From assembly GCF_006345805.1 (NCBI RefSeq), contig NC_043003.1:92194001-92258000 (forward strand): a stretch of 64,000 bases of DNA. Reading direction: 5' to 3'. Shown piece by piece: positions 60,485-60,754 of this stretch. The notes beneath the pieces were generated by a model. That model worked only from the letters and a program-made list of their open reading frames with translations. It was not told the origin of the DNA and did not search any database. A program made the position numbers and the translations under genes. Numbering within the stretch: the first letter of the stretch is position 1; each line of letters starts with the position of its first letter. This DNA comes from Octopus sinensis. Its lineage: Eukaryota.

Positions 60485-60754
60485 ATGAGAATTACTACAG
60501 CCATCACACTGGCACTTTTGCTAGTTGTTATTCACCCAATCAAACTGTCGTTGGCGGCCCATACTCCATGTAAAGCGTGTGAAATAAATGATGAACTCTT
60601 ATTCCAGAAATCCTGGGTTTGTGGTGAATGTGGTTCCTTATACAAGAACACTGCAATAGAGTACTGTTGCTTTTGCGACCAGGAATACTACGACAAATGT
60701 CTCATCGCCTCGGGTATCGATAAGGACAGAGACACTAATCTTAACCCGCACTAA
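60485..60754 (+). CDS. Secreted cysteine-rich peptide precursor (89 aa, 8 Cys), CHH/ITP-like neuropeptide or toxin candidate
   Basis: ATG in AAAATG context. Signal-peptide-like N-terminus MRITTAITLALLLVVIHPIKLSLA. Mature part has C-x2-C-x13-C-x2-C-x11-CC-x-C-x7-C. Non-repetitive, uninterrupted ORF. Pyrimidine-rich acceptor ttttatcttttaatAG ends at 60308; AATAAA at 61359. Confidence 0.85.
   Translation: MRITTAITLALLLVVIHPIKLSLAAHTPCKACEINDELLFQKSWVCGECGSLYKNTAIEYCCFCDQEYYDKCLIASGIDKDRDTNLNPH

Follow-up and report, generated by a model that had tools for sequence, protein, structure and literature searches.

A stretch of 64,000 nucleotides from the genome of Octopus sinensis (contig NC_043003.1, positions 92,194,001 to 92,258,000 of the forward strand; hereafter the window, numbered from its first letter) contains a spliced, apparently single-copy gene for a small cysteine-rich protein that is likely a secreted hormone of the CHH/ITP superfamily. 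The gene is likely an ancient duplicate of the one for CHH DREP, a four-cysteine peptide encoded on the same contig, and its product likely adopts a three-helix fold held together by four disulfides; the probability of this reading as a whole is put at roughly three in four. In arthropods the CHH/ITP hormones govern moulting, reproduction, sugar and water balance, and for many years they counted as ecdysozoan. Members of the superfamily outside the Ecdysozoa are already known, and what seems to be new here is a conserved sister family, intronless and with eight cysteines, that is linked to DREP and is most suitably treated as a paralogous family of its own in the CHH superfamily taken broadly. 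The octopus gene is not itself the DREP orthologue, because it encodes eight cysteines, has no coding intron and is adjoined by the true orthologue.

The gene and its peptide

An open reading frame (ORF) on the forward strand at 60485-60754 encodes a protein of 89 amino acids, the same protein that the original prediction, made from the letters of the window, had quoted in translation; a further in-frame ATG at 60467 makes a 95-residue form possible. Residues 3-19 are hydrophobic, with a Kyte-Doolittle maximum of 3.24 over 9 residues, and a signal peptide is predicted for residues 1-24 (60485-60556) from this hydropathy and from the matching stretch in the relatives described below, with cleavage probably near A24/A25. 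The predicted mature peptide of 65 amino acids, delimited from the translation, the family alignment and a predicted three-helix CHH-type fold, takes up 60557-60754 with its stop codon. Cysteines stand at positions 29, 32, 46, 49, 61, 62, 64 and 72 (spacings 2, 13, 2, 11, 0, 1, 7), the core from C29 to C72 being encoded by 60569-60700, so that translation and the hydropathy profile bear out the ORF, the hydrophobic N terminus and the eight cysteine positions given earlier. In cephalopods the peptide has an acidic C-terminal tail longer than that of CHH DREP, and no amidation signal is present at the C terminus of the octopod sequences. In a close relative (P0004) the tail ends in G-K-R, which is likely such a site.

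The gene is spliced and transcribed from two alternative non-coding first exons. Of 24 listed public sequencing runs, 18 from 7 studies contain half or more of the words from 60300-60980; none of them is on record as RNA, their RNA origin resting on the splice joints. Four of the runs were examined as contigs against the locus, and in all four a single gap-free contig extends from 60307-60311 to 60955 with nothing upstream. These contig starts coincide with an AG acceptor at 60307-60308 preceded by a pyrimidine tract. The loose end of the X1 contig (64 letters) matches 30457-30476 exactly and that of the X9 contig maps to 55025-55039, both sites being unique in the window and neither match being reached in 100 shuffles; because each loose end maps to a unique site and GTAAGT directly follows both exons so marked, two alternative first exons are recognized. 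The original prediction had let gene status hinge on transcripts and conserved orthologues, and both were found: beside the spliced contigs there are orthologues in Octopus bimaculoides (87% identity) and Argonauta hians (83%). Because of these orthologues, and of contigs that start at a splice acceptor, the eight-cysteine ORF is more than a chance frame.

The gene appears, on sequence searches, to be single-copy. With the octopus protein as query, the 2.72-Gb octopus genome yields one significant locus, its own, and with the family member from the bivalve Dreissena polymorpha as query the same locus is the sole significant match; the genome search scores the best candidates only, and the copy number is thus a lower bound. 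Other genome matches were judged to be chance (one at E 0.6, one LINE-like and one in a repeat; L002, L019 and L041 respectively), and a loose DNA pattern for E-x-CC-x-C, with 1180 matches against 734 in its control, was of no diagnostic value.

The eight-cysteine family

A HMMER profile built from 4 sequences was run against 1.84 billion representative proteins (E up to 0.001) and gave 28 matches, 21 of which carry the pattern C-x2(3)-C-x13..17-C-x2-CG-x9..10-CC-x-C-x7-C. A hydrophobic stretch precedes this pattern in every one of the 21. Six other matches were dropped as long unrelated proteins, and one (P0029) is without the full cysteine pattern. Across the family, which is wide and unannotated, the eight cysteines are invariant at spacings of 2, 13-17, 2, 10-11, 0, 1 and 7, and CC-x1-C-x7-C occurs in all 24 pattern-bearing members; core identity to the octopus protein is 29-42%, the four closest relatives excepted. 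Names are attached to two of ten clusters looked up, D. polymorpha XP_052228346 and Bulinus truncatus KAH9512503, and the members with names accordingly comprise two octopods, one bivalve and one snail. Three of five metagenome loci (L043-L045) also encode members, each as one uninterrupted ORF and two of them the same protein, and in L043 and L044 a pyrimidine tract and AG directly precede the ORF in the layout seen in octopus; the remaining two loci (L046, L047) fall outside the family. One member (P0009) has two tandem eight-cysteine domains after a single signal peptide. The O. bimaculoides orthologue (P0002, UniRef A0A0L8HEY8) goes under the name 'Phorbol-ester/DAG-type domain-containing protein', a label that was likely assigned automatically, and wrongly, on the strength of the cysteine pattern.

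Lophotrochozoan CHH homologues 'usually' have four cysteines according to the available part of a 2026 review. The search of the literature, which did not extend to subscription papers (the cuttlefish neuropeptidome is one), brought up no report of a mollusc CHH with eight cysteines. Motif searches of the readable supplements, a set outside which lie the PMC10501145 FASTA files and the PMC13542836 supplement, returned no family member, and none was present among the 10 of 53 motif occurrences listed for the supplements of PMC6425005. The family may already be listed somewhere in print.

Relationship to CHH DREP

The sections available of Koch et al. 2023 (PMC10501145) describe CHH DREP from molluscs and annelids as a four-cysteine spiralian peptide whose gene has a phase-2 intron and is expressed in ganglia of Aplysia and in the brain of squid, and whose predicted fold matches k-Ssm1a, Ssd609, Ta1a and prawn CHH. 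The original prediction had regarded CHH/ITP peptides as mainly ecdysozoan, and this publication of superfamily peptides from other phyla had already overtaken that view.

Similarity between the eight-cysteine family and DREP is found at the level of profiles. The profile of 4 sequences gave 80.7% against DREP (E 1.3e-5) and ranked it first among the non-self ORFs (E 0.0027; 6452 ORFs in 256 kb), and in hhalign a profile of 24 sequences that contains no DREP gave 96.1% (E 3.1e-9), the family consensus CGemYG aligning on CGEFYG of DREP. A hidden Markov model of the core scored DREP at 31.5 bits, a value reached by none of 2000 shuffles in which the cysteines were fixed (maximum 14.3) and by none of the 1996 full shuffles that were scored (maximum 17.5). 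The four cysteines of DREP align to C46, C49, C62 and C72 with a C61/C62 register that is not certain. Relative to DREP, the closest relative, the peptide has four extra cysteines and not the one extra pair that had been supposed.

The two genes are also linked. Their start codons are 189.9 kb apart in head-to-head orientation, that of DREP at contig position 92064608 on the reverse strand and that of the eight-cysteine coding sequence at 92254485 on the forward strand. The long ORFs listed between them resemble transposon pieces or low-complexity frames, among which small exons of other genes are possible. Contigs of DREP exon 2 occur in runs X1 and X9, both of which also contain the eight-cysteine gene; such contigs were not found in runs X8 and X19, which proves nothing about expression.

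Predicted fold and disulfides

A model of the mature peptide computed from 37 eight-cysteine sequences, DREP not among them, consists of helices only, with a predicted local distance difference test score (pLDDT) of 80.4 overall and about 90 over model residues 11-50. Foldseek compared it with 350,542 chains and returned three matches at E up to 10 and none at E up to 0.001, and all three are CHH-derived centipede toxins (2MUN, 2MVT, 2M35), the alignment to 2MUN covering 44 columns at a template modelling score by target of 0.76 and a root-mean-square deviation (rmsd) of 2.0. In a second, wide structural search 23 of 48,161 chains reached Z of at least 2, led by k-Ssm1a (Z 4.4, rmsd 2.6, 47 residues aligned), Ssm6a (Z 4.2, rmsd 2.6, 46 aligned), prawn MIH 1J0T (Z 3.9, rmsd 3.5, 54 aligned) and crab CHH-L (Z 2.7, rmsd 4.0, 55 aligned), with Ta1a at rank 8; unrelated chains begin at Z 2.6. 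Such Z values may mirror a common helical arrangement, and the evidence lies in the ranking and in the fact that sequence and linkage, as independent lines, point the same way. The predicted structure is thus all-alpha and of CHH type, at absolute scores that are weak. Structure modelling with Foldseek and a search of the Pfam CHH family had both been named beforehand as checks on the CHH/ITP link. The former gave a helical model with superfamily chains ranked first, if with weak scores, and the latter gave no match, so that the link now draws its support from the DREP neighbour and the fold searches, not from Pfam.

The disulfides can be placed only by analogy. Pairing of cysteines I-III and II-IV has been predicted for DREP (bioRxiv 10.1101/2022.08.05.502922, in the part available), and with C46, C49, C62 and C72 as counterparts of its four cysteines, bonds 46-62 and 49-72 would follow. 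The remaining C29, C32, C61 and C64 would make two further bonds. The third bond of arthropod CHH runs from a cysteine that precedes the CxxC by 15 residues to the one that comes next after the third core position. C32, which in the family as a whole precedes the CxxC by 13-17 residues, and C64 are suitably placed for this bond, and the intronless sister family may, judging from these spacings, keep the third CHH disulfide.

Signal cleavage would free the peptide of about 65 residues directly, as no intervening pro-peptide is predicted. A hormonal role is suggested by analogy with the family; on that model neurosecretory cells or endocrine cells of the periphery would release the peptide, which would act through a receptor guanylyl cyclase, as Drosophila ITP does (2026 review, available part), on ion, water or metabolic balance.

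Weighing the evidence

Several observations weigh against a CHH-superfamily hormone derived by duplication from DREP. Pfam scans with PF01147 found no match to the octopus protein or its family, and over the whole genome PF01147 produced 19 weak matches, none above the cut-off and none at the eight-cysteine locus. Searches of PDB sequences returned no CHH chain, and all that they and the Pfam scans gave were chance matches of zinc-finger type; BLASTP of the octopus protein against the DREP exon gave no alignment. The phase-2 coding intron that has been used to link DREP to CHH is absent, the C-terminal cysteine spacing is shorter than in DREP (x9 against x11), and linkage of the two genes is observed in one genome only. 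A first model, from 4 sequences, was of low confidence (pLDDT 52.5) with strands, and was not used, while the structural scores of the later model are weak (Foldseek E 5.3-7.8, best Z 4.4) and lie under the tool's reliability level for helical proteins. DREP itself matches neither PF01147 nor any PDB sequence, and because this published spiralian CHH peptide fails PF01147 too, the missing match says little. ESM Atlas, queried with two homologues, offered no lead, every feature score being 0.80 or less.

The same evidence has to be set against other origins and uses for the peptide. Descent from CHH might have led to an exocrine product, such as a venom component, a pheromone or a mucus defence peptide, instead of a hormone: venoms, those of cone snails among them, have repeatedly taken up peptides of the CHH fold (from the published sections available), centipede toxins are the best structural matches, the two promoters could drive gland-specific expression, additional disulfides would suit an external milieu, and run X8 contains the gene without the DREP exon. 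This is nonetheless unlikely. The venom and pheromone options are weakened because the gene occurs at a single significant genome locus, with no local expansion in 256 kb, and is conserved across mollusc classes, at 83-87% identity among octopods and with members in a non-venomous bivalve and a pond snail; the toxin matches themselves likely mirror a shared short fold, since the neural DREP of Aplysia has the same toxin structures as its top matches (PMC10501145, available sections).

Convergence on a CHH-like shape by an independent family of secreted, cysteine-rich helical peptides is quite improbable. It would account for the lack of Pfam and PDB sequence matches, the weak absolute fold scores and the different intron structure and cysteine count, yet the similarity to DREP exceeds the cysteine pattern, as the shuffles with fixed cysteines and the shared CGExYG and Y-x-KC indicate, 190 kb separate the two genes in a genome of 2.7 Gb, and two fold searches place CHH-superfamily chains first. 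Weak profile matches, to a single-chain insulin at E 0.39 and to fingers of the C2H2, PHD and GATA types, along with the UniRef label on the O. bimaculoides orthologue, might be taken to indicate a divergent single-chain insulin-like peptide or a fragment of a zinc finger. The insulin match disappeared with a deeper profile, all 21 pattern-bearing matches have a hydrophobic leader, and neither chain type surfaced in either fold search; with the helical model these searches largely refute an idea that is now scarcely credible.

The hormone reading can be extended into a fuller history, to which slightly less than an even chance is given. The gene would represent a second mollusc CHH lineage with eight cysteines, one that retains the third disulfide of arthropod CHH (C32-C64), which four-cysteine DREP lacks, and adds a fourth. 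Both it and DREP would stem from an ancient duplication in place, accompanied by loss of the coding intron, and would have stayed head to head in octopus. A six-cysteine core would then be older than the ecdysozoan-spiralian split, and molluscs would possess two CHH ligands that could be matched to receptors.

A conserved sister family with eight cysteines, present in cephalopods, in a bivalve and in a snail that hosts schistosomes, would double the spiralian CHH repertoire, may be a better bridge to the arthropod hormones, bears on the form of the ancestral protostome CHH, and would give the receptor guanylyl cyclases of molluscs a specific ligand to be matched with. The family would also be a hormone family concealed in databases as 'hypothetical' or as a mislabelled zinc finger.

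Features of the locus and its surroundings

The distal first exon (A), non-coding and with an approximate 5' end, lies at 30417-30482 on the forward strand, as do all features of the window given here, and is followed by an AG/GTAAGT donor after 30482 and an intron of 29,826 bp that ends with the acceptor at 60308. The proximal first exon (B), also non-coding, is placed at 55009-55040 with a putative start, followed by a G/GTAAGT donor after 55040 and an intron of 5,268 bp. A TATAAA box at 54977-54982 belongs to the likely proximal promoter, and a putative TCATT initiator-like site (55007-55011) follows about 32 bp after it. Both exons join through the common polypyrimidine tract and AG acceptor (60280-60308) to the last exon, which runs from 60309 to 60955 and beyond and comprises the remaining 5' untranslated region (UTR), the entire coding sequence and the 3' UTR; upstream stops close the reading frame ahead of the coding sequence. 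Exons A and B each contain short upstream ORFs of 5-7 codons that could damp translation, and 60837-60897 in the 3' UTR is a short dispersed repeat matched by many unrelated contigs. The claim that this is the only clear host gene in the window is compatible with the long ORFs among those listed, which resemble transposon pieces or low-complexity frames.

A short DREP motif pattern gave 7 genome matches, among which identification covers only the one on the same contig (L013). This is the octopus CHH DREP gene (L013, L021; contig positions 92062157-92064608, reverse strand), intact and with two coding exons, the first starting with the ATG at 92064608 as placed by motif search and ORF reading, and the second lying at 92062157-92062313, with a GT-AG intron of phase 2 between them. 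In sequence exon 2 is identical to O. bimaculoides CHH DREP (KOF87272.1) in supplementary file 1 of PMC10501145. A neighbouring gene is identical to an Octopus vulgaris predicted protein, and this, with the two octopod orthologues of the eight-cysteine protein, puts the sequence in the genus Octopus. Beyond the DREP gene a 423-residue ORF with many C2H2 zinc fingers (L020, 92053322-92054590, forward strand) is a possible synteny marker. About 5 kb downstream of the eight-cysteine gene, outside the window, gag-like and 988-residue pol-like ORFs of a long terminal repeat retrotransposon were assigned by eye (L035, 92259534-92263111, forward strand).

Comparison with known systems

Among other cysteine-rich peptides, mollusc insulins have CC-x3-C-x8-C in place of CC-x1-C-x7-C, a spacing that sets the octopus peptide apart from an insulin A chain. 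Snail clionin-1 and -2 (supplement of PMC10036341) are without the CC pair and differ in cysteine pattern, and clionin was rejected. HGAP is described as abalone-specific, with nine conserved cysteines. Lymnaea sodium-influx-stimulating peptide may also bear a resemblance. In structure the model comes closest to the centipede and spider HAND toxins (Ssm6a, SSD609, k-Ssm1a, Ta1a), but identity is 17-28%, and the octopus gene is apparently single-copy and conserved in non-venomous molluscs.

An invariant signature of six cysteines defines the ecdysozoan CHH superfamily in the sections available of PMC7560641. The octopus peptide departs from the strict form of this signature in cysteine count and C-terminal spacing, although six of its eight cysteines could be a subset, and it differs from CHH, MIH, GIH and ITP further in having no Pfam match, no precursor-related peptide and, in octopods, no amidation signal. 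It is like them in its N-terminal cysteine, 13-17 residues before the central CxxC where CHH has 15, and in a model that superposes on MIH (1J0T) and CHH-L (5XS1 is listed for the superfamily). CHH DREP is closer. The two differ in cysteines, eight here and four in two disulfides there, in the one-exon coding sequence of octopus and of metagenome loci L043-L045 against the phase-2 intron of DREP, and in an identity of about 31% where they align. In both, the mature peptide comes straight after the signal peptide, as judged from hydropathy and the family alignment, and they share the core C-x2-C-G-x-x-[YF] and Y-x-K-C and three predicted helices with the same PDB neighbours.
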